Of a stretch of 64,000 nucleotides of DNA, positions 2,431 to 64,000 are shown in pieces. The translations under genes were made by a program, and so were the position numbers. Where the stretch lies: assembly GCF_041886205.1 (NCBI RefSeq), contig NZ_CP169029.1; one strand, 5' to 3'. The stretch comes from Escherichia coli (GTDB lineage Bacteria > Pseudomonadota > Gammaproteobacteria > Enterobacterales > Enterobacteriaceae). Below the pieces are notes generated by a model, which saw only the letters and a program-made list of their open reading frames with translations, had not been told where the DNA came from and ran no database searches. Each line of letters opens with the position of its first letter. Position 1 is the stretch's first letter.

Positions 2431-3519
2431 TCACGGCAGGCGGTGGCGGGCTTGATAATAAGCCTGCCAGTGAGCTTCTTTATGTGTGGCGACTCGCTGT
2501 TCGAAGTAACGGCGCAGACGAGCGCGATCTTCTTCGTTATCTTTGACGATGGTTCCGGCAATACAGTCCACCAGATCGGCTGGCTCACCTGCGCGATTCG
2601 CTAAAAACCAGGCGCGGACGCCCACAGCGTGGGCCACGTTCACGGCTTCAGCGGTGGACATAATCGCTGTTAGTGTATCCATTGACGTTTTCTTTTCGCC
2701 GTTGGCACGCAGATCGCGGAAGGTGCGGACCAGTAACTCCAGTACCGCGTCAGGCACTTTATGCGGAATACCGCTATGGGCCAGCAAACGCGCCGAAGCA
2801 CTGGCGACCAGTTCCAGCTCCTGAGCGAAATCCATAATCGGAAAGACAGTTTCAAAATCGAAGCGACGCTTTAGCGCAGCACTCATCTCATTGACGCCGC
2901 GATCGCGCGTATTGGCAGTGGCAATAATATTAAAGCCTTCCCGCGCATAGAGTTGACTGGCTTCACCAGTGAGTTCCGGCACCGTCATCACCCTGTCAGA
3001 AAGCATACCTAACAGACAGTCTTGCACTTCCAGCGGTGTACGCGTTATCTCTTCAAAACGGACGATTTTGCCGTCGCGCATTCCCTGGTAAAGCGGGGCA
3101 GGGACCAGCGCTTCCGTTGATGGACCATGATTGATAAGCAGAGCGTAGTTCCAGCCGTACTTGATTTGATCTTCAGTGGTAAATGCGCCGCCCTGGATGG
3201 TTAACCCGGCATCGCCGCTAATAGCGGTTGCCAGTAATTCAGACAGGAGAGATTTTGCGGTGCCCGGTTCCCCCACCAACATCAAACCGCGCCCGGTGGC
3301 AAGAGTGACTAACATACGTTCGACAGCAGAGGGACTAATCACGACTTTACGGCTAATATTTTGCGCGCTATCGCCAAGGATAAAAGCACGTGCCGCAGGC
3401 AAACTTAACTGCCAACCGGGCGGGCAAGGTGCGTTATCATTTTGTTTTAATTTTGCCAGTTCATCGGCGTATAACACAGCGGCAGGCGGACGCTGCAGAT
3501 GATTATTCTGCGGTGACAT
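2431..3519 (-). CDS. yehL: MoxR / AAA_5-type AAA+ ATPase (362 aa)
   Basis: ORF 2431..3585. The start is taken at ATG 3519 (MSPQNNHLQRPPAAVLYADELAKL...). Walker A is LMLVGEPGTAKS, a Walker B-like segment is GKIVRFEEI, and IIATANTRDRG is typical of MoxR-class ATPases. Confidence 0.9.
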   Translation of the reverse strand: MSPQNNHLQRPPAAVLYADELAKLKQNDNAPCPPGWQLSLPAARAFILGDSAQNISRKVVISPSAVERMLVTLATGRGLMLVGEPGTAKSLLSELLATAISGDAGLTIQGGAFTTEDQIKYGWNYALLINHGPSTEALVPAPLYQGMRDGKIVRFEEITRTPLEVQDCLLGMLSDRVMTVPELTGEASQLYAREGFNIIATANTRDRGVNEMSAALKRRFDFETVFPIMDFAQELELVASASARLLAHSGIPHKVPDAVLELLVRTFRDLRANGEKKTSMDTLTAIMSTAEAVNVAHAVGVRAWFLANRAGEPADLVDCIAGTIVKDNEEDRARLRRYFEQRVATHKEAHWQAYYQARHRLP

Positions 3520-3625
3520 ATATTCATCCCTGAAATGTATTAATGAAATAAACGATATTTTACGCGCAATAAATGTTTGGCGCATTAGTTGTTTGAGCGA
3601 AAAATATCTGGAAAGCAGATCACAG

Positions 3626-3656
3626 TAAATAAAAAAACCTGCTGGTGAGGCAGGTT
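3626..3656 (-). terminator. Rho-independent terminator ending the molR-like/yehI/yehK transcript
   Basis: Stem AACCTGC (3636-3642) / GCAGGTT (3650-3656) with a 7-nt loop. On the minus strand it is followed by TTTTTTTATTT. It lies about 170 nt after the yehK stop and upstream of yehL. Confidence 0.8.
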
Positions 3657-3825
3657 CTTTTATTTACTATTTTCAGGCCTAACACCACAGCCTGTGCAAC
3701 ATCGTGTTCCAACGAACGAATTATAACCACGGCTGGACCCCGTTGCAATTAAGATAATGAGATTTATAATCCAGACCGTTGGGACGTTGCGCCGGATCGG
3801 ACCAATTTGAATTATTTAGAGTATA

Positions 3826-4143
3826 TTATTCTATTTCTTGGTTGAATATATTCTGTAGTTCACGATTAAAAATTGCTATTACAGTTTCAGGTGATTCACC
3901 TCGTAATTTCCGCTCATCAATACACTCATCTCTTATATAAATCAACGCATCATTTATTAGCGGGTCAGCATCTTCTCGATCACGTTGATGAAATGTTGGA
4001 TGTAGCCGGAATCGCTCCAGTCGATAGACGGAACCTGTAAATAATTCAGAGCATTTATGGATCTCAAGTCTGAAGGAAAACGGATCTTCAGGTACAGGGA
4101 CCTCATAATCGTAAATAGCAACCAGCTCTTTTTGCACGATCAT
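3826..4143 (-). CDS. yehK: Small acidic protein of unknown function (105 aa)
   Basis: ORF 3826..4143. Its position between yehI and yehL matches recalled K-12 yehK (105 aa). Coding sequence is AT-rich and shows no recognisable motif. Confidence 0.8.
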   Translation of the reverse strand: MIVQKELVAIYDYEVPVPEDPFSFRLEIHKCSELFTGSVYRLERFRLHPTFHQRDREDADPLINDALIYIRDECIDERKLRGESPETVIAIFNRELQNIFNQEIE

Positions 4144-4202
4144 CGCTTTCCCGTTGGTAAGTCGTGTTGAAAACGGGCAGTCGCATCACTGCCCGTTGTG
4201 TT

Positions 4203-27120: not shown

Positions 27121-27217
27121 TTTATTAACGCGATTGTAAAACTGCCGTTTTTCCTCGTTTACAACGGGTGCGCTGGACATTACCATCCTCCTCTGCGATT
27201 TATCATCGCAACCAAAC

Positions 27218-27342
27218 GACTCGGGGTGCCCTTCTGCGTGAAGGCTGAGAAATACCCGTATCACCTGATCTGGATAATGCCAGCGTAGGGAAGTCACGGA
27301 CCACCAGGTCATTGCTTCTTCACGTTATGGCAGGAGCAAACT
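27218..27342 (+). promoter_or_regulatory. TPP (thi-box) riboswitch controlling thiM translation
   Basis: ACTCGGGGTGCCCTTCTGCGTGAAGGCTGAGAAATACCCGTATCACCTGATCTGGATAATGCCAGCGTAGGGAAGTC is the classic thiM aptamer (CUGAGA and ACCUGAUCUGGAUAAUGCCAGCG elements). The expression platform masks the GGAG upstream of ATG 27343. Confidence 0.95.
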
Positions 27343-43552: not shown

Positions 43553-43639
43553 AAAAAATAAGCCCGTGTAAGGGAGATTACACAGGCTAAGGAGGTGGTT
43601 CCTGGTACAGCTAGCATTTTATGGGTTATGTTTTTCAGC
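43553..43639 (-). ncRNA. cyaR: CyaR (RyeE) Hfq-dependent sRNA
   Basis: The reverse complement reads GCTGAAAAACATAACCCATAAAATGCTAGCTGTACCAGGAACCACCTCCTTAGCCTGTGTAATCTCCCTTACACGGGCTTATTTTTT. This matches the recalled CyaR sequence, including its terminator hairpin and U-tail. Confidence 0.9.
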
Positions 43640-43674
43640 GAAACGGATGATAACCTTAATAAATGCAGCTGTAT

Positions 43675-49289: not shown

Positions 49290-52200
49290 TTACTCGGTTA
49301 CCGTTTGTTTAGGTTTACGCGAAAAACGCAGCCGCAGACGGTCGAAAAAGAGATACACCACCGGCGTGGTATACAGCGTAAGGAGCTGGCTCATTACCAG
49401 TCCGCCGACAATGGTGATCCCCAGGGGTTGCCGCAGCTCCGAGCCGTCGCCGCCCGACAATACCAGCGGCAGCGCACCAAACAGCGCCGCCAGGGTAGTC
49501 ATCATAATCGGGCGAAAACGCAGCAGACAGGCCTGGAAAATAGCTTCCTGCGGCGTCAGGTTACCGTGCCGTTGGGCTTCAAGCGCAAAATCGACCATCA
49601 TAATGGCGTTTTTCTTCACGATGCCGATTAATAGCATGATCCCTATCAGGGCGATTAGGCTGAACGGGGCATTGAACAGCTCCAGCGCCAACAGCGCTCC
49701 AACGCCCGCCGAGGGCAGGGTGGAGAGAATCGTCAGCGGATGTACGTAACTCTCGTAAAGGATACCCAGCACGATATACACCGTGGCGATGGCGGCGATA
49801 ATCAGGATCACCTGCGAGTTCATCGTCTCCTGGAACACCTGCGCCGTGCCGGCAAAACTGCCGCGCACCGTCGAAGGCACACCAAGCTGGGTCATTGCGC
49901 GATCGATCGCCGCACTGGCGTCCGAGAGCGATTTTCCGGTCGGCAGGTTAAACGAAATGGTCGAGGCCGCCGATAATCCCTGATGATTCACCGATAGTGG
50001 GGCATTCGCCGGTTGCCATTTAGCGAAATACGACAGCGGGATCGCTTTGCCTTCGTTATTGATAACGAACATTTTTTCCAGCGCACTGATGTCCTGGGTA
50101 TAGCGCGGATCCACTTCCATCACCACTTTATACTGGTTCATCGGCTGGTAAATGGTCGAGATTTGCCGCTGACCGAAGGCGTTATTTAACAGACTGTTGG
50201 CGGCTTGTACGTCGATTCCCAGCCGTGCCATGGTGTCGCGGTCGTAAACCAGATTCATCTCCGCGCCGTTATCCTGCTGATCGGAGTTCACGTCCGCCAG
50301 TTCCGGCAACGTCGCCAGTTTTTTGCGGATTTTCGGCTCCCATTCTCGCAGTGCCGCCAGGTCGTCGGATAACAACGTGTACTGGTAGCTGGCGTTCGAC
50401 TGACGCCCACCAACGCGAATATCCTGTACCGCCATCAGGAACAGATTCGCCCCCGGTTCTTTCGCCAGTTTTACGCGCAGACGGTCGATAATTTGCTGCG
50501 CCGTTTCGCTGCGTTCGTCGCGTGGCTTGAGGGTGATAAACATCATCCCGCTGTTCACTCGCGAACCGCCTGTAAAGCCGGTGACATTATCCACTGCCGG
50601 ATCGTCACGGATAATTTTCATGAAATCCTGCAACTTACCGCGCATCGCCTGAAACGAAATACTCTGATCCGCCTGAATCCCGCCCATCAACACGCCAGTG
50701 TCCTGCTCCGGGAAGAAGGTTTTCGGGATCGAGATATACAGCCAGATATTCAGCGCAATGGTGCCAAGCAGCACCACGCCCACCAGATGGGTATGATTGA
50801 GCACCCATTTCAGTGACTTGCCGTAGCCTTGTTGCAGGGCTACCAACATGCGACCAAAACCACGCAGTCGCTTTTGCTCGCGCGGCTTGCTGGCTTTCAG
50901 CATCCAGCCACACATCATTGGCGTTAATGTCAGAGAAACCAGCAACGATATACCAATGGCGACAGAAAGCGTCACGGCAAATTCGCGTAACAGTCGGCCC
51001 GGCAATCCGCCCATCAACAGCAGCGGCAGGAACACCGCCACCAGTGACAGACTCATCGACAGCACCGTAAAACCGACTTCGCGAGTACCTTGCAGTGCGG
51101 CTTGCAACGGTTTCATTCCCGCTTCCAGATGACGTGCAATGTTTTCCAGCACCACGATGGCGTCATCCACCACGAAACCAGTAGCGATGGTGAGCGCCAT
51201 TAACGAAAGGTTATTGAGACTGAATCCGCACAGGTACATCGCCGCAAACGTACCAATCAGCGAAACCGGCACCGAAACGGCGGGAATAATAGTGGCGCGA
51301 CCCGAGCGCAGGAATAAAAACACCACCAGAATCACCAGCGCCACCGAGATAATCAGCGTTTGCTCGACTTCTTCCAGCGAGGCGCGAATGGTGGGGGAGC
51401 GATCCTGGGCAATTTGCAGATCAATCGCCGCCGGAATGGTTTCCTGCAACTCCGGTAATTTTGCCCGGATGCTGTCAACCGTCTGGATAATATTGGCTTC
51501 CGGCAGTTTGCGGATCATCAGTAAAATAGCCGGTTTGGCGTTGGTCATCCCGGCGTTGCGCACATCCTGCACTGAGTCGGTCACCGTCGCCACATCGCCC
51601 AGACGAACCGCGCCGCCGTTGTTGTAGTGAATAATCAACGGCTGATATTCAGCGGCGGTTTTTAGCTCATCATTGGTCTGGATCTGCCAGCGGTGAGTGC
51701 CATCTTCCAGCGCGCCCTGCGGTTTACGCACGTTGGCATTGCTGACGGCGGTGCGTACGTCGTCCAGCGACACGCCCTGATTAAACAGCGCCTGCGGATT
51801 CAGCCCGACGCGTACGGCGGGCAGTGAGCTGCCTCCGACATCGACATCACCAACACCGTCGATTTGCGAAATTGTCGGAGCCAGCTGCGTCGAGGCGAAA
51901 TCGTACAGTTCACCCTGCGAATAAGTATCGGACGTCAGCGTGAGGATCATAATTGGCGCATCCGACGGGTTCGCTTTGCGATAGGTCGGGCGGCTGGGCA
52001 TCCCACTGGGCAGCAAACTTTGTGCAGCGTTGATCGCCGCCTGCACATCACGCGCTGCGCCGTTGATATCCCGGTCAAAATCAAACTGCAAAATAATACG
52101 CGTGCTGCCGAGCGAACTGCTGGAGGTCATTTCACTGACTCCGGCAATGCGCCCAAGTGAGCGCTCCAGCGGCGTGGCAACGGAAGACGCCATTGTTTCT

Positions 52201-52367
52201 GGTGACGCACCGGGCAGCGAGGCGCTGACCATAATCACCGGAAAATCGACCTGCGGCAGCGGGGCGACCGGCAGCATACGGAAGCCCAGTATGCCGCACA
52301 GGGTAATGGCAACCGACAGTAAAATCGTCGCCACCGGACGGTAAATGAAGAGGGCAAAAAACTTCAC
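49290..52367 (-). CDS. mdtC: RND efflux pump subunit MdtC
   Basis: 1025-aa RND permease. Confidence 0.95.
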
Positions 52368-55300
52368 TTACGCCTCCTCTTCATGACGGGCAAAGCGGCT
52401 TTTGGTCCACAATGCCAGGCGGTCGAACAGCAGATAAATCACCGGCGTGGTGAACAGCGTCAGCACCTGGCTGACAATCAGGCCGCCGACCATGCCGATA
52501 CCTAACGGACGACGCAGTTCCGCGCCGACCCCGGTACTCAACATCAGCGGCAGCGCGCCAAGCAGAGCCGCCAGGGTGGTCATCAGGATCGGACGAAAAC
52601 GCAACAGACAAGCCTGGTAGATTGCCTCGCGCGGCGACATGCCTTGCTCGCGCTCGGCAGCCAGCGCGAAGTCGATCATCATGATGGCGTTCTTCTTCAC
52701 GATACCGATCAGCAAAATAATGCCGATAATCGCAATCACATCCAGTTCGCTACCAGCAATCAGCAACGCCAGCAGTGCGCCAACCCCTGCGGTGGGTAGC
52801 GTCGAGAGAATGGTGATCGGGTGAATAAAGCTCTCGTACAGAATGCCGAGCACGATATACATCGCCACCACCGCCGCGACAATCAGCCAGACAGTGCTGC
52901 CCAGCGCCGACTGGAAGGCGAGGGTGCTGCCCTGGAACTGCGTGGTGATATCCACCGGCAGATTCAGCGTCTTTTCGGTGTCCATAATCGCCTGCACCGC
53001 ATCGCCCAGCGAATAGTTATCCGGCACGTTAAAGGAGATGGTCGTTACCGGGAACTGATCCAGATGGTTGATGGAGAGCGGCGCAAAACGCTGCTCAATT
53101 TTGGCAATTGAGCTTAGCGGCACCACGCCGCCGTCGCTGCTGGTCAGGCGAATGGTATCCAGCGCCGCGAGGCCTGGGGTATTTTCGGTGTTGTGCTCCA
53201 GCACCACGCGATACTGGTTGGCCTGAGTATAAATAGTGGAAATCAGCCGCTGACCAAACGCGTTGTACAGGGCGTTATCGACATCCGCCATGCTGATCCC
53301 CAGACGGCTGGCGCTGTCGCGATCAACATTGACATACGCCACCAGCCCTTTGTCCTGCCAGTCGCTGGAGACATCAGAAAGCTGTGGCAGTTGCTGGAGT
53401 TTTTCCATCAACTGTGGCACCCAGGTACTGAGCGCATCCAGTGACGTGGCCTGCAAGGTAAACTGGTACTGGGTGCGGCTGACCTGAGTATCAATAGTCA
53501 GATCCTGCGTTGGTTGCAGGAAGAGATCGACGCCCGGCACTTTATCTACCGCCGTTTGCAGACGGGCGATGACTTTTTGCACCCGATCATCACGTTCATC
53601 CAACGGTTTGAGGTTGATTTGTAAACGTGCACTGTTCAGCGACGGGTTAGTGCCATCAACGCCAACAAATGAGGTCAGGCTTTGCACTGCCGGATCCTGC
53701 AAAATCACGTCCGCGACCTGGCGTTGTCGCTGGGCCATATTGGCAAAGGAGCTGGATTGCGGTGCCTGCAAAGTGCCCTGAATAATGCCATTGTCCTGTA
53801 CCGGGAAGAAACCTTTCGGAATGAACACCCACAGCAGCACGCTAAGCAGCAGCGTGCTGAGTGCCACGCTTAAGGTCAGCCACGGATGATTCAGCACTTT
53901 CGCCAGTCCACGACCATAGGCGGCGATTATCCTGTCGAACATTTTTTCCGAGGCACGGGAGAAGCGGTTCTGTTTACGCAACGACTCCTGGCTGAGCATC
54001 CGCGCGCACATCATCGGTGTCAGGGTCAGCGACACCACCGCTGAGATCAAAATCGCTACCGCCAGGGTAATAGCAAATTCGCGGAACAGTCGCCCGACGA
54101 TATCGCCCATAAACAGCAGTGGGATCAACACCGCAATCAGTGAGAAGGTCAGCGAGATAATGGTAAAGCCGATTTCACCTGCGCCCTTGAGCGCCGCCGC
54201 CAACGGTTTTTCGCCTTTTTCGATATAGCGGGAAATGTTTTCGATCACCACGATGGCGTCATCGACCACGAATCCGGTGGCGATAGTTAACGCCATCAGT
54301 GTCAGGTTATTGATTGAAAAATCGAGAAACACCATAACCGCGAAAGTGCCGATTAACGACAGCGGTACAGCAACACCGGGAATGATGGTCGCCGGAATAT
54401 TGCGCAAAAACAGGTAGATAATCATGACTACCAGCGCGATAGCCATCATCAATTCAAACTGAGTATCATCGACGGATGCGCGGATATTGGTGGTGCGATC
54501 GGAAAGCACTGTCACCTTCACCGATTTCGGCAGACTCTCAGTGAGCTGTGGCAGCATCTGCCGAATGCTGTCGGCGGTGGAGATAATGTTAGCACCGGGC
54601 TGGCGCTGAACATTCATCACAATGGCCTGTTCTTTGTTCGCCCACGCGCCGAGCCAGCTGTTTTCTGCACCTTGCTCTACAGTTGCGACATCGCCCAGAC
54701 GAATTGGCGCGCCGTTCTGGTAGGCGATGATTAGCTGGCGATACTCTTCGGCGGATTGCATCTGGTCGTTCGCGGAAAGCGTGACCGCACGGGAAGGGCC
54801 GTCGAGGCTACCTTTTGCCGAGTTAACGTTAGCGCCGGTAATGGCGGTGCGCACGGTTTCGCTGGTCAGGCCGAGGGCGGCAATCGCCTGAGCGTTAAGT
54901 TTGACGCGAACAGCCGGACGCTGACCGCCGGAAAGCGTCACCAGGCCGACGCCGGAAATCTGCGAGATTTTCTGCGCGACGCGGGTTTCCACCATATCTT
55001 CCACTTGCGTCATCGGCATGGCGGTTGAGGTGACGGCGAGCGTCATGATCGGCGGATCTGCCGGGTTCACTTTGCTGTAAACCGGCGGGTTAGGCAGATC
55101 GCTCGGCAACAAGTTGGTCGCAGCGTTAATCGCGGCCTGCACTTCCTGCTCGGCGACATCGAGCGGTAATGTTAGCTGGAACTGCAAAGTGATAACTGAC
55201 GCACCGCCGGAACTTTGCGACGACATCTGTTTCAGGCCAGACATCTGCCCGAACTGGCGTTCTAGCGGCGCGGTAACGGCAGAGGTCATGACATCCGGGC

Positions 55301-55490
55301 TGGCACCTGGGTAGAGCGTGACCACCTGAATGGTCGGATAGTCCACTTCCGGCAGCGCCGAAACGGGCAGGGCGCGATAACCGATAATCCCGGCGAGTAA
55401 GATCGCCACCATCAGCAGCGTGGTGGCCACAGGACGCATAATAAACAGGCGCGACGGGCCGCCTGTGCTGCTCGGGGGTAACACCTGCAT
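52368..55490 (-). CDS. mdtB: RND efflux pump subunit MdtB
   Basis: 1040-aa RND permease. Its start shares 1 nt with the mdtA stop (TGATG). Confidence 0.95.
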
Positions 55491-56737
55491 CAGGAGCGTG
55501 CTCCTTTTTTCGCGTATTCGCGGCTGGTGGCTTTCTCTTCCGGAGTAGTGGCGCTCTGGGCTTCCACCACTTCCACTTTCGCCCCTTCGGTCAGGCGATC
55601 AATGCCGTCTGTCACCACGCGATCGCCCGCAGAAATACCTGCACGGATCACCACTTTCTGACTGTCCTGAATGCCCGGCGTCACCAGATGTTTGCTGACC
55701 TTGTTTTCGCTATTCAGCACCCAGACAAAATGGCCTTCATTGCCCATTTGCAGGGCGGCTGTTGGGATCACTACGGCGTTTTGTTCGGTGTCGACTAACA
55801 TGCGCGCGTTAACAAACTGATTGGGAAACAGCGCATCATCCTGATTATTAAAGCGTGCTTTCACTTTAATCGTACCGGTAGTGGCATCGATTTGGTTATC
55901 TAGACTTAACAGCGTGCCTTCACTTAATTTCTTCGAGTTGGTGCGATCCCAGGCTTCTACCACCAGCGGTTTTCCGGCTTTCTGCGCCTGCACTACGGTA
56001 GCGATATCGCTTTCCGGCAGGGTAAAGACTAAATCGATAGGATGCGTCTGGGTGATCACCACGATCCCGGTGGTATCACCACTGGAGATTTGGTTACCAA
56101 CATCAACCTGCTTGAGACCAACGCGACCATCGACTGGTGCGGTAATCCGGCTCCAGTCGAGTTGCAGCTGCGCGCTGGCAACGCTTGCTTCATCAGCCTT
56201 AATGGTGCCTTCGGTTTCACTGACCAGCGCCTGTTGGGCATCCAGCTCCTGGCGGGAAACGAGATTGGTTTTTGCCAGTTGTTGATAACGCGCCAGGTCA
56301 CGGCGGGCGTTGGCAAGCGTGGCTTTATCTTTTGCCAGTTGGCCCTGGGCTTGTGCTAATGCAACTTTGAACTGGCTGGGGTCAATTTCTGCCAGTAAAT
56401 CGCCTGCTTTGACCTGCTGGCCTTCCTGGAAATGTAACGCTATCAGTTGGCCGTCCACGCGGCTGCGCACCGTAACGGTATTAGCGGCGGTAATGGTGCC
56501 AAGCCCGGTGAGGTAACGCGGAACTGCCTGTTCTACGGCGGTCGCCGCCTGAACCGGGGCTAATGGGCCGGAACGCATACCACGTCGACCACCCGCTGGC
56601 GATTGCTGCGCTTGTTTCGTCGCCCCTGGGGCTGCACTCCGGGAGTCATTGCGGCCTTGCCAGAACCAGAATGCGGCGATGGCGGCGATAACCACCACGA
56701 TTACGATTACCCAACGGGATTTATAACTACCTTTCAT
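55490..56737 (-). CDS. mdtA: RND membrane-fusion protein MdtA (415 aa)
   Basis: ORF 55490..56884. The start is taken at [23 protein letters not shown]. Confidence 0.93.
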
Positions 56738-56790
56738 CGTTAAGAGTTTCTCTTCCTGAAACGTTTCGCGGAATGATACTAGTGTAGCCA

Positions 56791-56808
56791 GCCAATAAGG
56801 GAGAAAAA
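56791..56808 (-). promoter_or_regulatory. BaeR-box-like sequence upstream of mdtA
   Basis: The minus strand reads TTTTTCTCCCTTATTGGC. This is close to the BaeR consensus TTTTTCTCCATDATTGGC as I recall it. It lies about 55-70 nt upstream of the mdtA ATG. Confidence 0.6.
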
Positions 56809-56971
56809 TGGAGGAATTATGAAACACTGTCTGGAATCGTCTGAATGACGGGCACATTTGCGAGCACGCATCCAGTAATAACACAGGAAACTATTTTATC
56901 TACGCGTTAGCGATAGACTGCTTGCATGGCGAAAGGAGGTAAGCCGACGATTTCAGCGGGACGCTGAAACG

Positions 56972-57108
56972 GGAAAGCCCCTCCCGAGGAAGGGGCCATA
57001 AATAAGGAAAGGGTCATGATGAAGCTACTCATCATCGTGGTGCTCTTAGTCATAAGCTTCCCCGCTTACTAAGACTACCAGGGCGGGGGAAACCCCGCTC
57101 TACCCTCA
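56972..57108 (-). ncRNA. Sib antisense antitoxin sRNA, copy 1 (ends approximate, +/-10 nt)
   Basis: Minus-strand promoter: TTGACA (57143-57138), a 17-nt spacer, TACTTT (57120-57115). The terminator hairpin GCCCCTTCC/GGGAGGGGC (56977-56996) is followed by TTTCCC. It is fully antisense to the ibs ORF. Confidence 0.7.
57016..57072 (+). CDS. ibsB: Ibs-family hydrophobic toxin peptide, MMKLLIIVVLLVISFPAY (18 aa)
   Basis: A short ORF with AAGG upstream. Its sequence equals the recalled IbsB-type peptide. Assigning A/B symbols within a 4-copy array is arbitrary. Confidence 0.8.
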   Translation: MMKLLIIVVLLVISFPAY

Positions 57109-57299
57109 CTCCTGAAAGTATGCCTTCACGATAAGATTGTCAATCCGCAGGCTTTGTAGTCTGCGATCCTGCCAGCAAATATTCTTTGCGAGTCGTTACG
57201 CAATAATCACAGAGGAAACTATTTTATTCACGCGTTAGCGATAGACTGCATTCAGGGCGAAAGGAGGTAAGCCGATGATTTCAGCGGGACGCTGAAACG

Positions 57300-57437
57300 G
57301 GAAAGCCTCTCCCGGAGAAGAGGGCTTTTAATAAGGAAAGGGTTATGATGAAGCTACTCATCATCGTGGTGCTCTTAGTGATTAGCTACCCAGCATACTA
57401 AGACTACCAGGGCGGGGGAAACCCCGCTCTACCCTCA
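57300..57437 (-). ncRNA. Sib antisense sRNA, copy 2 (ends approximate)
   Basis: TTGACA (57472-57467), 17 nt, TACTTT (57449-57444). The terminator hairpin is a variant with a bulge (AGCCTCTCCCGGAGAAGAGGGCT). Confidence 0.65.
57345..57401 (+). CDS. Ibs-family toxin peptide, MMKLLIIVVLLVISYPAY
   Basis: The equivalent ORF in repeat unit 2. Confidence 0.75.
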   Translation: MMKLLIIVVLLVISYPAY

Positions 57438-57628
57438 TTCCTGAAAGTATGCCTTCACGGTCAGATTGTCAATCTGCAGGCTTTGCAGTCTGCGATCCTG
57501 CCAGCAAATATTCTTTGCGAGACGTTACGCAATAATCACACTGGAAACTATTTTATCCGCAAGTCAGCGATAGACTGCATACAGGGCGAAAGGAGGTAAG
57601 CCGACGATTTCAGCGGGACGCTGAAACG

Positions 57629-57765
57629 GGAAAGCCCCTCCCGAGGAAGGGGCCATAAATAAGGAATGGGTCATGATGAAGTGGATCATCATCGTGGTGC
57701 TCTTAGTCATAAGCTTCCCGGCTTACTAAGACTACCAGGGCGGGGGAAACCCCGCTCTACCCTCA
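57629..57765 (-). ncRNA. Sib antisense sRNA, copy 3 (ends approximate)
   Basis: Same promoter and terminator architecture as copy 1 (-10 at 57772-57777 on the plus-strand coordinate). Confidence 0.65.
57673..57729 (+). CDS. Ibs-family toxin peptide, MMKWIIIVVLLVISFPAY
   Basis: The equivalent ORF in repeat unit 3. Confidence 0.75.
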   Translation: MMKWIIIVVLLVISFPAY

Positions 57766-57956
57766 CTCCTGAAAGTATGCCTTCACGGTCAGATTGTCAA
57801 TCCGCAGGCTTTGTAGTCTGCGATCCTGCCAGCAAATATTCTTTGCGAGTCGTTACGCAATAATCACACTTGAAACTATTTTATCCGCAAGTCAACGATA
57901 GACTGCATACAGGGCGAAAGGAGGTAAGCCGACGATTTCAGCGGGACGCTGAAACG

Positions 57957-58093
57957 GGAAAGCCCCTCCCGAAGAAGGGGCATTAAATAAGGAAAGGGTC
58001 ATGATGAAGATACTCATCATCGTGGTGCTCTTAGTGATTAGCTACCCAGCATACTAAGACTACCAGGGCGGGGGAAACCCCGCTCTACCCTCA
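57957..58093 (-). ncRNA. Sib antisense sRNA, copy 4 (ends approximate)
   Basis: TTGACA, a 17-nt spacer and TACTTT are retained even though the flanking repeat sequence diverges here. Confidence 0.65.
58001..58057 (+). CDS. Ibs-family toxin peptide, MMKILIIVVLLVISYPAY
   Basis: The equivalent ORF in repeat unit 4. Confidence 0.75.
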   Translation: MMKILIIVVLLVISYPAY

Positions 58094-58274
58094 CTCCTGA
58101 AAGTATGTCACTCAACCCTTGTTGTCAATCTGTAAGCCCACGTTCTTGCGAGGCGAATAGCAAAATTATCTACGCCGCCGGGCCTAATTCTGAAAGTTTC
58201 TTCGTTTGCTCTTATTTCATTATTGCAGTCGGTATGATACCGGACCTCAATAATTCTCTAAGAAAGGATTTCTT

Positions 58275-58934
58275 ATGAGCGAACAAATCACGTTTGCCAC
58301 CAGCGATTTTGCCAGTAACCCGGAACCACGTTGCCCCTGCATTCTGCTGCTGGATGTTTCTGGCTCGATGAGCGGCAGACCTATTAATGAACTTAACGCC
58401 GGATTGGTTACCTTTCGCGATGAGCTGCTTGCCGATCCGCTGGCCTTAAAAAGAGTGGAACTCGGTATTGTGACGTTCGGCCCGGTGCATGTGGAACAAC
58501 CCTTTACCAGCGCCGCTAATTTTTTCCCGCCCATCCTGTTTGCCCAGGGCGATACACCAATGGGGGCCGCCATTACCAAAGCCCTGGATATGGTTGAAGA
58601 GCGGAAACGTGAGTATCGTGCAAATGGTATTTCGTATTATCGCCCGTGGATTTTCCTGATCACCGATGGTGCACCAACCGATGAGTGGCAGGCTGCCGCC
58701 AACAAAGTGTTTCAGGGGGAAGAAGATAAGAAGTTTGCTTTCTTTTCCATTGGTGTTCAGGGGGCGGATATGAAGACGCTGGCACAAATCAGCGTTCGTC
58801 AGCCTTTGCCTCTGCAAGGATTACAATTCCGTGAACTGTTTAGCTGGTTATCCAGTTCGCTGCGTTCGGTTTCCCGCTCCACGCCGGGAACGGAAGTTGT
58901 GCTGGAAGCGCCAAAAGGCTGGACGTCAGTGTGA
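58275..58934 (+). CDS. yegL: TerY-like von Willebrand factor A (vWA) domain protein
   Basis: 219 aa with MIDAS residues [11 protein letters not shown] ... GDTPMG ... [10 protein letters not shown]. Its stop overlaps the yegK start (GTGA at 58931). Confidence 0.92.
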
Positions 58935-59692
58935 GCTGGCGTCTGGTTTATGCATCCGTTGTTGGAACGTCGCACATTAGCGCTGATTTACCTTGTCAGG
59001 ATGCCTGCCAGATGCAGGTTGCCTGGCTAAATGACCAGCAGCCATTATTGTCGGTATTTGTCGCTGATGGCGCAGGCAGTGTCTCGCAGGGTGGCGAAGG
59101 CGCGATGCTCGCCGTCAATGAAGCGATGGCTTATATGTCGCAAAAAGTGCAGGGTGGGGAATTGGGGCTTAATGATGTCCTCGCCACGGATATTGTACTG
59201 ACTATTCGTCAGCGACTTTTTGCCGAGGCGGAAGCCAAAGAATTAGCGGTTCGCGATTTTGCCTGCACATTTCTGGGACTGATTTCATCGCCTGACGGCA
59301 CCTTGATTATGCAGATTGGCGATGGCGGCGTGGTGGTGGATTTTGGTCACGGTCTGCAATTGCCGCTTACGCCGATGGTGGGTGAATATGCCAATATGAC
59401 GCATTTCATTAGCGATGAAGATGCTGTTTCCAGACTGGAAACTTTCACCAGCAATGAGCGTGCGCATAAAGTTGCAGCATTTACGGATGGTATTCAGCGA
59501 CTGGCGTTAAATATGCTGGATAATTCTCCGCATGTGCCTTTCTTTACCCCGTTTTTCAATGGACTGGCGGCAGCAACGCAGGAACAACTCGATTTATTAC
59601 CTGAATTGTTAAAGCAGTTTTTGTCCAGCCCGGCGGTAAACGAGCGTACCGATGATGATAAAACGTTGGCACTGGCGCTGTGGTTACCATGA
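58931..59692 (+). CDS. yegK: PP2C-like Ser/Thr protein phosphatase
   Basis: 253 aa with [17 protein letters not shown] and FTDG acidic/metal-binding motifs of the PP2C_2 type. It is recalled as PphC. Confidence 0.9.
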
Positions 59693-61629
59693 AACCCACT
59701 TTATATACTGCTACTGGTGAGTGCGTTACGCCAGGCCGTGAACTGGGCAAAGGTGGTGAAGGCGCGGTTTATGATATCGAGGAGTTTGTCGATAGCGTCG
59801 CCAAGATTTATCACACGCCGCCACCCGCCTTAAAACAGGACAAACTTGCCTTTATGGCTGCGACAGCTGACGCGCAGTTGTTGAATTATGTCGCCTGGCC
59901 GCAGGCAACGCTTCACGGTGGACGAGGCGGAAAAGTTATCGGTTTTATGATGCCAAAAGTTTCTGGTAAAGAACCGATTCATATGATCTATAGCCCGGCA
60001 CATCGTCGCCAGAGTTACCCTCATTGTGCGTGGGATTTTCTACTCTATGTTGCGCGCAATATTGCTTCATCTTTTGCTACGGTTCACGAGCACGGGCACG
60101 TCGTGGGTGACGTAAACCAGAACAGTTTTATGGTAGGTCGCGACAGCAAAGTGGTACTGATTGATAGCGACTCCTTTCAGATTAACGCCAATGGCACACT
60201 GCATTTATGCGAAGTCGGCGTGTCGCATTTTACGCCGCCAGAGCTACAAACCTTGTCGTCATTTGTCGGCTTTGAACGCACAGAAAATCACGATAATTTT
60301 GGCCTTGCGTTGCTGATTTTTCACGTCTTGTTTGGTGGCCGGCATCCTTATTCTGGTGTGCCGCTTATCTCTGATGCGGGTAATGCGCTGGAGACGGATA
60401 TTACCCATTTCCGTTATGCCTACGCGTCAGATAATCAGCGACGTGGTTTAAAACCGCCGCCACGATCGATTCCGCTATCGATGTTACCGAGTGATGTTGA
60501 AGCCATGTTTCAGCAGGCATTCACGGAAAGTGGCGTGGCAACCGGGCGTCCGACGGCTAAAGCGTGGGTAGCGGCACTTGATTCTCTGCGCCAACAGTTA
60601 AAGAAATGTCCCGTTTCGGCAATGCATGTTTATCCCGCTCATTTGACCGACTGCCCGTGGTGTGCGCTGGATAATCAAGGCGTTATCTATTTTATTGATC
60701 TCGGCGAAGAGGTCATTACCACCAGCGGTGATTTTGTGCTGGCGAAAGTCTGGGCGATGGTGATGGCGTCAGTAGCACCGCCAGCATTGCAATTGCCATT
60801 ACCCGATCATTTCCAACCGACTGGCAGGCCGCTTCCTTTAGGCCTGTTACGGCGCGAATACATCATTCTGATTGAGATCGCACTGTCAGCGTTATCGCTG
60901 TTGCTTTGCGGCCTTCAGGCAGAACCGCGTTATATTATTTTGGTTCCTGTGCTGTCGGCTATCTGGATTATTGGCAGTCTGACAAGCAAAGCGTACAAAG
61001 CAGAAGTTCAGCAACGCCGTGAGGCATTTAATCGCGCGAAAATGGACTATGACCATTTATTCAGCCAGATCCAACAGTTGGGCGGGCTGGAAGGTTTTAT
61101 CGCCAAACGGACGATGCTCGAAAAAATGAAGGACGAAATGCTCGGGTTACCGGAAGAAGAAAAACGTGCTCTGGCAGCACTTCACGACACCGCAAGGAAA
61201 CGGCAGAAGCAGAAGTTTCTGGAGGGATTTTTTATTGATGTTGCCTCTATTCCCGGCGTTGGCCCTGCGCGTAAAGCGGCGTTACGGTCCTTTGGTATTG
61301 AAACAGCAGCGGATGTTACCCGTCGTGGGGTTAAGCAAGTGAAAGGGTTTGGTGATCATCTGACCCAGGCAGTTATCGACTGGAAAGCAAGTTGCGAACG
61401 CCGTTTTGTGTTCAGGCCGAATGAAGCGGTAACGCCAGCAGACAGACAAGCGGTAATGGCGAAAATGACCGCCAAACGACATCGGCTGGAATCGACGTTG
61501 ACTGTCGACGCGACAGAGTTGCAGCGATTCCGCCTTCATGCTCCAGCACGGACCATGCCGTTGATGGAACCGTTACGTCAGGCGGCAGAAAAACTGGCTC
61601 AGGCGCAGGCTGATTTAAGCCGCTGCTGA
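59689..61629 (+). CDS. yegI: Ser/Thr protein kinase with transmembrane and C-terminal helix-hairpin-helix modules
   Basis: ORF 59680..61629 (GTG). I prefer ATG 59689, which overlaps the yegK stop as ATGA. Motifs are the Gly loop GKGGEGAVY, Lys VAKIY, catalytic loop GDVNQNS, DSD (DFG-like) and TPPE (APE-like). Two hydrophobic helices span residues ~393-436. HhH repeats are IPGVGPARKAALRSFGI and VKGFGDHLTQAVIDW. Confidence 0.9.
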   Translation: MKPTLYTATGECVTPGRELGKGGEGAVYDIEEFVDSVAKIYHTPPPALKQDKLAFMAATADAQLLNYVAWPQATLHGGRGGKVIGFMMPKVSGKEPIHMIYSPAHRRQSYPHCAWDFLLYVARNIASSFATVHEHGHVVGDVNQNSFMVGRDSKVVLIDSDSFQINANGTLHLCEVGVSHFTPPELQTLSSFVGFERTENHDNFGLALLIFHVLFGGRHPYSGVPLISDAGNALETDITHFRYAYASDNQRRGLKPPPRSIPLSMLPSDVEAMFQQAFTESGVATGRPTAKAWVAALDSLRQQLKKCPVSAMHVYPAHLTDCPWCALDNQGVIYFIDLGEEVITTSGDFVLAKVWAMVMASVAPPALQLPLPDHFQPTGRPLPLGLLRREYIILIEIALSALSLLLCGLQAEPRYIILVPVLSAIWIIGSLTSKAYKAEVQQRREAFNRAKMDYDHLFSQIQQLGGLEGFIAKRTMLEKMKDEMLGLPEEEKRALAALHDTARKRQKQKFLEGFFIDVASIPGVGPARKAALRSFGIETAADVTRRGVKQVKGFGDHLTQAVIDWKASCERRFVFRPNEAVTPADRQAVMAKMTAKRHRLESTLTVDATELQRFRLHAPARTMPLMEPLRQAAEKLAQAQADLSRC

Positions 61630-61640
61630 GCCATTTTCTT

Positions 61641-62993
61641 TTAACGAAACACCACTTCCGCCCAGCGTGCCAGCCCGGCGGTGACGGAGCCAAAGTCATC
61701 GCCGCCTGCAATCGGAATTCCCGGCAACTGTTCTGCCAGCGCTTTTTTAATCAGCGGCGAACGGGCGCTACCGCCGGTCAGGTAGATAACGTCCGGTTTT
61801 TCCTGGGCGTTATCCAGGGCCAGTTGCACCTGTTCCAGAATCCGCGCCAGTGGCTGGCTGAGGGCGCTTTCCAGCCCTTGCTGGCTAATCAGCGTAGCCA
61901 GTTCATCGCTGATAAACGGCAGTGAGGCGCGGGTTTCCGCTACGCTTGAAAGAGCAATTTTGCACTCTTCTGCGCTACGCACCAGGCGATAGCTTAAACG
62001 CTGACGCCAGACTTTCTGTAGCAGGGCCACTTTTTCCGGTTCGCGGGCATCGCGTACCAGATCGTTAAGCAGACGACCGTTGGCACTACTGTAGAAATCA
62101 CTCTGCGCAGGTACGTCGTTGATGGCAACCGCATTCCACCACGGCAGAATCGGCAGGGCGATGCCTTTTTCGGTTTCGCCACCCATGCCCAGTAACGGCA
62201 TCAGGTTTTTAAACGCCAGTGCGATGTCCAGATCGTTACCGCCAATACGGCAACCACTGTGACCCAGCAGGCTGGCTTCACGATCGAGACGCGAACGCCA
62301 CTGCGGCCCCATCAGCAGCAATGAACAGTCAGTCGTACCACCGCCGATATCCACCACCAGCACCCGTTTTTCTTCCTGCAAGGTGGCTTCGTAATCCAGC
62401 CCAGCCGCGACCGGCTCGTACTGGAATACCACGTCCCTGAATCCGGCACGCTTCGCCGCGCGTTCCAGAATCCCTTGCGCCTGGGCGTTTGCTTCATCGC
62501 CGCCCAGCCCCTGGAAGTTGATCGGGCGACCAATCACCGCCTGAGTAATCGCTTCTGGCAGCTGCGCCTGCGCCTGCTGGCGAATGTGCAACATCATTGC
62601 GCAGACCAGATCCTCAAACAGCGCTACCTGCTGCGGTTTTAAGCCGCTGGCACCGAGGAACGATTTTGGTGATTTCACAAACCACACTTCTTCTGGATCA
62701 TCAATGTACTGTGCCAGTGAGGAAAGACCGAACTGCACGCTTTTCGCCGTAACATCGATATCTTCTTCGCGGTTATAACGAATCGCCCGACGTAACAGCG
62801 CCTGCGTTTCATCGTCGTCTGCCGGAACATCATGATGGCGGTACAGCCATTCACTTACTGCTTCACGCGTTGGCGCGCAAAGCATTGAAGGCAGCAGCGT
62901 GCTGTCGTTTTCCATTTTCAGTAATTGCGGTTTACCGTCACGCATGACCGCCACTGAACAGTTTGCTGTACCGTAATCAAAACCAATAAACAC
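61641..62993 (-). CDS. yegD: Hsp70/actin-fold ATPase YegD (nucleotide-binding domain only)
   Basis: 450 aa with FIGFDYGTANCSVA, VVDIGGGTTDCSL and IYLTGGSARSPLI, the Hsp70 phosphate-1, phosphate-2 and adenosine motifs. Confidence 0.93.
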   Translation of the reverse strand: MFIGFDYGTANCSVAVMRDGKPQLLKMENDSTLLPSMLCAPTREAVSEWLYRHHDVPADDDETQALLRRAIRYNREEDIDVTAKSVQFGLSSLAQYIDDPEEVWFVKSPKSFLGASGLKPQQVALFEDLVCAMMLHIRQQAQAQLPEAITQAVIGRPINFQGLGGDEANAQAQGILERAAKRAGFRDVVFQYEPVAAGLDYEATLQEEKRVLVVDIGGGTTDCSLLLMGPQWRSRLDREASLLGHSGCRIGGNDLDIALAFKNLMPLLGMGGETEKGIALPILPWWNAVAINDVPAQSDFYSSANGRLLNDLVRDAREPEKVALLQKVWRQRLSYRLVRSAEECKIALSSVAETRASLPFISDELATLISQQGLESALSQPLARILEQVQLALDNAQEKPDVIYLTGGSARSPLIKKALAEQLPGIPIAGGDDFGSVTAGLARWAEVVFR

Positions 62994-63066
62994 GAATTAA
63001 TCCCCATGCCGGTGAAGAAGGGGCGTGACTTTAGCGAAATGTTGCCGTCGCGACAACCGGAATATG

Positions 63067-63079
63067 AAAGCAAAGCGTA
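63067..63079 (+). promoter_or_regulatory. Ada-box-like element in the alkA promoter
   Basis: AAAGCAAAGCGTA compared with the recalled Ada consensus AAANNAAAGCGCA (one mismatch). It lies about 50 nt upstream of the alkA ATG. Confidence 0.45.
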
Positions 63080-63126
63080 GCGTCTGAATAACGTTTATGC
63101 TGAAAGCGGATGAATAAGGAGATGCG

Positions 63127-63984
63127 ATGTATACCCTGAACTGGCAGCCGCCGTATGACTGGTCGTGGATGTTGGGATTTCTCGCCGCCCGTGCGGTGAG
63201 TGGTGTGGAAACGGTCGCTGAGGATTATTATGCCCGTAGTCTGGCGGTGGGCGAATATCGCGGCGTGGTGACTGCTATTCCGGATATAGCCCGCCATACT
63301 CTGCACATAAATTTAAGTGCAGGTTTAGAACCCGTTGCCGCTGAGTGTCTGGCGAAAATGAGCCGCCTGTTTGATCTGCAATGTAACCCGCAGATTGTTA
63401 ACGGTGCGTTGGGCAAGTTAGGCGCGGCGCGGCCCGGATTGCGTTTACCCGGCTGTATTGATGCTTTTGAGCAGGGTGTGCGGGCGATTTTAGGCCAACT
63501 GGTGAGCGTGGCGATGGCGGCAAAATTGACTGCCAAAGTTGTACAGCTTTATGGCGAACGGCTGGATGATTTTCCGGAGTATATCTGCTTCCCCACGCCT
63601 CAGCGGCTGGCAGCAGCCGACCCGCAGGCATTAAAAGCGTTAGGCATGCCGTTGAAACGGGCAGAGGCACTGATTCATCTGGCAAATGCGGCGCTGGAGG
63701 GCAGCTTACCAATGACAATTCCGGGCGATGTGGAGCAGGCGATGAAAACGCTGCAAACTTTTCCGGGTATCGGGCGCTGGACGGCGAATTATTTCGCTTT
63801 GCGTGGCTGGCAGGCGAAAGATGTTTTTCTGCCGGATGATTATCTGATTAAACAGCGATTTCCGGGGATGACACCGGCACAAATCCGCCGTTATGCCGAG
63901 CGCTGGAAGCCCTGGCGTTCTTATGCGCTGTTGCATATCTGGTATACGGAAGGCTGGCAACCAGACGGAACGGACGAATTGTAG
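63127..63984 (+). CDS. alkA: 3-methyladenine DNA glycosylase II
   Basis: 285 aa, MYTLNWQPPYDWSWMLGFLAARAV..., with the HhH-GPD motif (FPGIGRWTANYFALRG ... D). The C-terminus (…GWQPDGTDEL) differs slightly from what I recall for K-12. Confidence 0.93.
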   Translation: MYTLNWQPPYDWSWMLGFLAARAVSGVETVAEDYYARSLAVGEYRGVVTAIPDIARHTLHINLSAGLEPVAAECLAKMSRLFDLQCNPQIVNGALGKLGAARPGLRLPGCIDAFEQGVRAILGQLVSVAMAAKLTAKVVQLYGERLDDFPEYICFPTPQRLAAADPQALKALGMPLKRAEALIHLANAALEGSLPMTIPGDVEQAMKTLQTFPGIGRWTANYFALRGWQAKDVFLPDDYLIKQRFPGMTPAQIRRYAERWKPWRSYALLHIWYTEGWQPDGTDEL

Positions 63985-64000
63985 GCCTGATACGTCGCAT

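Follow-up and report, generated by a model that had tools for sequence, protein, structure and literature searches.

In Escherichia coli K-12, toxin-antitoxin systems of type I named Ibs/Sib pair small hydrophobic toxins, Ibs, with antisense RNAs, Sib; one locus holds two such pairs (QUAD1 repeats), ibsB/sibB beside mdtA and ibsA/sibA beside yegL. Here we describe the same locus in a 64,000-nt stretch of E. coli DNA (contig NZ_CP169029.1 of assembly GCF_041886205.1; hereafter the window). It shares with K-12 the position, orientation, Sib promoter, fold and full overlap of each open reading frame (ORF) by its antitoxin, and differs in carrying four units rather than two and in ending on an IbsB-like module of peptide type IL-Y. 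We are confident, if short of certain, that these are four modules of the Ibs/Sib family in an array assembled by homologous recombination between lineages, and we predict that the modules are not mutually insulated.

Recognition in this family has been described for K-12 SibC, in which the recognition region TRD1 (+46 to +68) is directed at the interior of the ORF and TRD2 (+99 to +115) at the site where translation starts (Han et al. 2010, PMC2943612). TRD2 requires stem P1 and is aided by the P6 loop (PMC2943612); either TRD is enough alone for repression, and the duplex is then degraded by RNase III (PMC2943612; PMC4147584). Toxicity on overproduction, in the form of membrane depolarisation and stasis, has been shown, in the literature and in annotation, for IbsC, IbsA and IbsE; IbsC depolarises the membrane (PMC8309996), and the IbsA of Salmonella is reported to act through a His residue, inhibiting the Fo part of ATP synthase (2025 preprint). 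The ldr/rdl and zorO-orzO/zorP-orzP systems also combine small hydrophobic toxins with antisense RNAs in intergenic repeats of strain-variable number (Fozo et al. 2010, PMC2887945). They are other families, in which the antitoxin is divergent or overlaps the 5' untranslated region (UTR); Sib, by contrast, spans its entire ORF. The ibs genes themselves number five in K-12 and seven in O157:H7 Sakai and in Shigella boydii CDC 3083-94, with lineage-specific duplications (Fozo et al. 2010, PMC2887945).

Four Ibs/Sib modules between mdtA and yegL

The mdtA-yegL interval is one tandem array of four ibs/sib units of 328 or 329 bp each. Tandem Repeats Finder reports a single array (56876-58107, period 328, 3.8 copies, 91% matches), a repeat search returns four copies spaced by 329, 328 and 328 nt, and the four aligned units have a mean column identity of 92%, the final ~80 nt of unit 4 being unique right-flank sequence. 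Together with the Rfam matches described below, these results agree with the original prediction, made from the window alone, of four tandem modules of ~328 bp between these two genes; its location stands, while its limits, 56881-58145, give way to an array running from about 56876 to 58128. The features are as follows.

56876..58188: whole array, in units 56876-57204, 57205-57532, 57533-57860 and 57861-58188 (Tandem Repeats Finder, repeat spacing, alignment)
55490-56737 (-): mdtA, left flank of the array
58275-58934 (+): yegL, right flank of the array
57016-57072 (+): ibs1, 18 codons and stop, peptide MMKLLIIVVLLVISFPAY
57345-57401 (+): ibs2, 18 codons and stop, peptide MMKLLIIVVLLVISYPAY
57673-57729 (+): ibs3, 18 codons and stop, peptide MMKWIIIVVLLVISFPAY
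58001-58057 (+): ibs4, 18 codons and stop, peptide MMKILIIVVLLVISYPAY
56972-57107 (-): Sib1, 136 nt, Rfam score 142 bits, fold z = -4.38
57299-57436 (-): Sib2, 138 nt, chimeric, Rfam score 136.7 bits, fold z = -3.83
57629-57764 (-): Sib3, 136 nt, Rfam score 131.7 bits
57957-58092 (-): Sib4, 136 nt, Rfam score 141.1 bits
57115-57143 (-): Sib1 promoter, TTGACA-N17-TACTTT
57444-57472 (-): Sib2 promoter, TTGACA-N17-TACTTT
57772-57800 (-): Sib3 promoter, TTGACA-N17-TACTTT
58100-58128 (-): Sib4 promoter, TTGACA-N17-TACTTT

On the minus strand each unit matches Rfam RF00113 (SIB_RNA) over the full length of the model (1-147/147), at 57001-57143, 57330-57472, 57658-57800 and 57986-58128; the scores of 131.7-142 bits compare with a gathering score of 56 bits, and Rfam gives no further SIB match in the window. 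We set the ends of the RNAs by sequence register with the curated sibB and sibA features of MG1655, which yields 136-138 nt in place of the ~137 nt first proposed and leaves the predicted antisense arrangement as it was. Sib1 is identical to K-12 SibB (136/136). As is defining for the family, whose Sib RNAs span ~136-145 nt, each RNA has its own sigma-70 promoter and an intrinsic terminator, both of which had been predicted. The motif TTGACA-N17-TACTTTCAGGA occurs exactly four times, always on the minus strand and once per unit, against a chance expectation of ~0.01, and all four promoters share the same hexamers and spacing. The predicted folds (z-scores of -3.8 to -4.4) share one architecture, comprising a closing stem, the P2 hairpin, P5, P6 and a terminator hairpin followed by CUUUCC; P1, P2, the P5 loop (TRD1), P6, J1/7 (TRD2) and the terminator are the same elements as in K-12 SibC/ibsC and SibD/ibsD.

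A generic promoter and terminator scan gave only weak sites and did not flag these Sib signals, because the -10 hexamer matches at only 3/6 positions and the U-tract is short. The same scan picked out a terminator-like hairpin on the plus strand at 57306-57324, in the 5' UTR of ibs2 (CCTCT...AGAGG, then GCTTTTAATA), which is the complement of the SibA-type Sib terminator.

On the plus strand each unit carries, as predicted, one 18-codon ibs ORF; ORFs and Shine-Dalgarno sequences are intact in all four, and each ORF lies wholly inside the coordinates of its opposite-strand Sib. All four peptides match Pfam PF13956 (Ibs_toxin), searched as doubled peptides and as the single peptides of the identical locus in draft assembly GCA_011032045.1. 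The ibs1 peptide is K-12 IbsB and all four are IbsB-like; an ibsA-type ORF (19 aa, with His) is absent from the array, and ibs4 sits at the terminal position that ibsA occupies in K-12. Judged from its sequence, the array has every defining feature of the Ibs/Sib family.

The toxin promoters could not be pinned down from hexamers alone, and we propose just a start placed by homology and a weak -10. The putative start site, CAGCGGGACGCTG, lies ~63 nt upstream of the ATG by homology with the mapped 5' ends of ibsC and ibsD, which we took from their defining primer sequences (Han et al. 2010, PMC2943612). It is preceded by a weak candidate -10 element (GACGAT or GATGAT).

A chimeric second unit and the origin of the array

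We compared the 328-nt units across ~30 arrays and mapped mismatches against K-12 MG1655 and strain 2017.01.04CC (NZ_AP021891.1), which also has four units. Unit 1 is the K-12 ibsB/sibB unit (328/328 identical), and units 3 and 4 agree base for base with the third and fourth units of 2017.01.04CC, whose array shows the same order of peptide types (LL-F, LL-Y, WI-F, IL-Y) and likewise lacks ibsA. Unit 2 is divided between the two lineages: its 5' part (the ibs upstream region, Sib terminator and TRD2) is identical to the K-12 ibsA/sibA unit, and its 3' part, which starts at ORF codon 4 and takes in TRD1 together with the 5' end and promoter of Sib, matches unit 2 of 2017.01.04CC without a difference. 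Read along the RNA, the 5' 82 nt of Sib2, TRD1 included, are identical to Sib4, and the 3' 56 nt, holding TRD2 and the terminator, are those of K-12 SibA. The change from one lineage to the other falls in a 10-nt stretch common to all unit types, between the last difference from 2017.01.04CC (57344) and the first from K-12 (57355).

57345..57354: crossover interval, ATGATGAAGC, at the ibs2 start codon (mismatch maps, unit alignment)
52657..57354: K-12-identical tract, 4,698 nt with 0 mismatches to MG1655, reaching from within mdtB through mdtA and unit 1 to the 5' part of unit 2
57345..60107: 2017.01.04CC-identical tract, 2,763 nt with 0 mismatches, covering the 3' part of unit 2, units 3-4, yegL, pphC and the start of yegI

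Outside these tracts the similarity falls away on both sides. Against MG1655 there are 10 mismatches over 49600-57354, none of them in 52657-57354, and divergence from 57355 on; against 2017.01.04CC the window is ~2% divergent up to 57344 and again from 60108, with 31 mismatches in 56585-57344 (unit 1 and the 5' part of unit 2), where K-12 alleles stand here. Each parent is thus ~2% or more divergent on the opposite side of the crossover, and the relative switch inside unit 2 is abrupt, with flanking tracts identical to different lineages, as inter-lineage recombination predicts. On these mismatch maps, the array is a K-12-type left part joined to the right part of a 2017.01.04CC-like four-unit array, with one breakpoint within the array. 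The left 24.3 kb match phylogroup-A-like complete genomes at 99.9%, and the right 6.6 kb have no match above 99.0% among complete RefSeq E. coli genomes. The chimeric unit 2 occurs in 0 of 5,426 such genomes, the closest unit being 96.4% identical.

The original prediction had the array expanding and contracting by unequal crossing-over. Were this so here, the four units would have arisen in this lineage from a K-12-like two-unit array, and the general process is plausible enough: the locus holds from 1 to 5 units among complete genomes, and some arrays do have near-identical neighbours, as in the five-unit array of strain ARS-C301 (units 1 and 2, 98.1%; units 3 and 4, 97.3%) and in array L021 (units 2 and 3, 95.8%). 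In the present array, core identity between units is only 88-93%; adjacent pairs reach 90.4, 88.9 and 90.8%, and no pair exceeds 93.1%. Neighbours are therefore far from near-identical, and recent local unequal crossing-over does not explain the array. Duplicated K-12 units would, moreover, be of ibsB or ibsA type, not of the WI-F and IL-Y types of units 3 and 4, which K-12 lacks; ibsA itself is missing; and units 3 and 4, the 3' half of unit 2 and 2 kb of right flank are identical to another lineage, giving a clean two-parent mismatch map that speaks against local duplication. We consider local expansion of a K-12-like array very unlikely. Unequal exchange is likely the source of arrays with near-identical neighbours, such as units 1 and 2 of ARS-C301, where the original proposal retains its force, and presumably gave rise to multi-unit arrays in the first place.

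Repeats of this kind also raise the question of mis-expansion during assembly, and short-read assemblies do often break here (contigs L032 and L033 end inside or beside the array). The independent draft GCA_011032045.1, however, spans the array in a 50.9-kb contig and is 100% identical over 55189-64000 (8,812 nt), and the array is therefore not an assembly artefact. All four units are, besides, distinct from one another, and four- and five-unit arrays are present in many complete genomes. We regard an artefact as exceedingly improbable.

The exchange between lineages was not a single step. Beyond 60108 neither K-12 nor 2017.01.04CC matches closely, which counts against so simple a two-parent history; the history therefore involves more than one event. 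A second recombination boundary lies at 60107/60108, inside yegI. In the same region pphC (58931-59692) is followed directly by yegI (59689-61629), as in 2017.01.04CC, whereas K-12 has yegJ and a spacer (~785 nt) between them.

What is new in this array is the chimeric unit 2 allele, a hybrid of SibA and Sib4 types. The other three units are identical to annotated ones, and the system was already known, as were its locus, its tandem arrangement and the variation in its copy number.

Recognition regions and predicted cross-repression

By analogy with the K-12 family, to which the modules are similar or, for unit 1 (ibsB/sibB), identical in sequence, the plus strand of each unit would encode an 18-residue hydrophobic membrane peptide, and the minus strand a constitutive Sib RNA of ~136 nt overlapping the entire ORF and its ribosome-binding site. 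Pairing would start at two regions, TRD1 within the ORF's 3' half and TRD2 where translation begins, and would lead to a translation block and decay by RNase III. The join within the 10-nt ibs2 start region, whose left part comprises mdtA, unit 1 and half of an ibsA/sibA unit (the 5' half), gives a Sib2 with SibA-type TRD2 and terminator and Sib4-type TRD1. No crossover of this kind can break the self-complementarity of a cis-antisense pair, so the chimera remains a matched pair.

We located the TRDs on Sib1-4 by alignment to SibC. The four RNAs differ at 26 columns, of which TRD1 holds 5, the P6 loop 4, TRD2 5 and the terminator 12; the remaining ~60 nt are invariant. This array resembles SibC/SibD in that TRD1 and TRD2 are where differences between copies concentrate. 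Of the five differences in TRD1, four are silent in ibs, which is consistent with selection acting on the RNA and not on the peptide.

Each module shows perfect complementarity between Sib and ibs, by construction, as the two are cis-encoded. Between modules the picture differs from K-12, where Sib copies do not cross-react, ibsA excepted, and where non-cognate pairs have at least 4 mismatches in TRD1 and at least 3 in TRD2. Such insulation characterises the K-12 set without strictly defining the family, and it is not predicted here: Sib2 and Sib4 do not differ anywhere between +1 and +82, with 0 mismatches across the whole of TRD1, and between Sib1 and Sib3 there is 1 mismatch in each TRD, besides 4 in the P6 loop. 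Because Sib2 and Sib4 share TRD1 exactly, cross-repression is predicted between modules 2 and 4; modules 1 and 3 probably cross-repress as well.

The distribution of TRDs hints at a wider pattern. About two dozen TRD1 x TRD2 combinations occur in the ~30 arrays, a TRD is often shared by modules of one genome, and the chimera of SibA TRD2 and Sib4 TRD1 is a caught example of reassortment. It is conceivable, though we hold it as doubtful, that the array acts as a recombination-driven combinatorial set, in which crossovers in invariant segments of the core reassort TRD1, TRD2 and the P6 loop between units and lineages.

Several points weigh against reading these as four functional, cross-repressing modules. 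The ibs promoters are placed by homology only, with a -35-like element that is weak and varies between units; IbsB is annotated in MG1655 only as a "putative toxic peptide"; the His needed for the activity of Salmonella IbsA is absent from all four peptides; and the predicted cross-talk extrapolates SibC/SibD rules to SibB-like RNAs. The original prediction that all toxins and antitoxin promoters look functional accordingly holds for the ORFs, Shine-Dalgarno sequences, Sib promoters and folds, and was overstated for the toxins, given putative ibs promoters and a "putative toxic" IbsB.

Some modules could then be decaying relics, with a silent toxin or antitoxin, and the array a neutral repeat. 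The -35-like element is good in unit 1 only (TTGCAT) and poor in units 2-4, and in Sib3 a single base change shortens stem P1 of the predicted fold, on which TRD2 function depends (PMC2943612). Decay is seen elsewhere: in the three-unit array of GCA_012438825.1 a premature stop cuts ibsA to 16 codons (2721-2771), possibly a decayed toxin, and single-unit arrays abut IS150 or IS66. Set against this, none of the four units has a damaged ORF, Shine-Dalgarno sequence, Sib promoter or terminator; the Rfam scores (132-142 bits) are no lower than those of K-12-type copies; variation is confined to the recognition regions and mostly synonymous in the ORF, which suggests selection; and units 3 and 4 have been kept base for base in another lineage. 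We judge decay unlikely, and retain the reading of four family modules.

Copy number across E. coli

To place the four units in the species, we pooled two systematic samples, giving 98 distinct rows out of 5,428 matching records from the 5,426 complete genomes; unit counts were read from the match span and the annotated toxins, and representatives were fetched for checking. The counts were:

five units: 1/98 rows (strain ARS-C301)
four units: 10/98 rows
three units: 42/98 rows
two units: 40/98 rows
one unit: 4/98 rows
no unit: 1/98 rows

Three units (~43%) and two (~41%) thus account for most of the sample, with ~10% at four, 1% at five and 4% at one. The comparison with MG1655 bears out the earlier statement that K-12 has two modules here (ibsB/sibB and ibsA/sibA), and the 1 to 5 units seen in complete genomes bear out the polymorphism; the latter claim had been staked on four copies not being the state of most strains, K-12 included, and ~10% have four while K-12 has two. 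The four-unit state is not unusual for the species. The copy-number polymorphism is real but ordinary, and already in the literature; the extra toxins are likewise already in RefSeq annotation ("type I toxin-antitoxin system Ibs family toxin", four times in 2017.01.04CC). A class of matches at 84% coverage, which we had considered as arrays with a different right flank, turned out to consist of plus-strand three-unit arrays with the flank piece unjoined (checked on one, L025).

The extremes of the range differ in character. The largest array seen, that of ARS-C301 (NZ_CP132983.1, 1917-3291), has five units in the order IL-F, IL-F, LL-Y, LL-F, IbsA, and its near-identical units 1 and 2 resemble a recent duplication. 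In the single-unit arrays of NZ_CP072204.1 and NZ_CP167126.1 an insertion sequence (IS), IS150 or IS66, follows directly and replaces the remainder of the array and yegL; array contraction can therefore be IS-mediated and not recombinational only. The two-unit array of H93 (NZ_CP028752.1) has an IS3 insertion within it.

Among species-representative genomes, Sib cores are found in Escherichia, Shigella, Citrobacter, Kluyvera, Pseudocitrobacter, Phytobacter and Salmonella, with one to three units per array in the representatives of Escherichia and Shigella. The unit 3 ORF has no exact match in this collection, which holds one genome per species and is uninformative on the point. Shigella flexneri SFBU1023 (CP182556.1, 5715-6614) has three tandem Sib matches at 375-nt spacing, two of them scoring lower (~100 and ~130 bits); the spacing fits the sibD/sibE locus, which has two units in K-12, and copy number at that locus appears variable too.

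The window holds three further RNA features. A full-length OrzO-P antitoxin RNA (RF02083, 3631-3706, minus strand, 99.9 bits) marks a zor-orz type I locus, which is absent from MG1655 (Fozo et al. 2010, PMC2887945). This is the single RF02083 match in the window, and the locus is probably present in one copy; the ORF list for 3300-4200 contains no 29-codon ZorO ORF. A CyaR small RNA (43556-43641, minus strand, 100.7 bits) and a thiamine pyrophosphate (TPP) riboswitch (27212-27308, plus strand, 71.2 bits) are ordinary for this chromosomal region.

The two modules of K-12 are not the species norm at this locus: three are at least as common, and roughly a tenth of complete genomes have four. Type I toxin-antitoxin loci therefore vary more than counts based on K-12 would suggest. 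The chimeric module shows a further property of such pairs, that a cis-antisense pair can be cut and rejoined by recombination with its self-complementarity kept and its recognition regions reshuffled, and it allows a concrete and cheap test of the TRD1/TRD2 specificity rules. If the array does work as a combinatorial set, IbsB-like modules would make up a network of antitoxins that repress across modules and gain redundancy from extra copies, in contrast to the insulated pairs of K-12.

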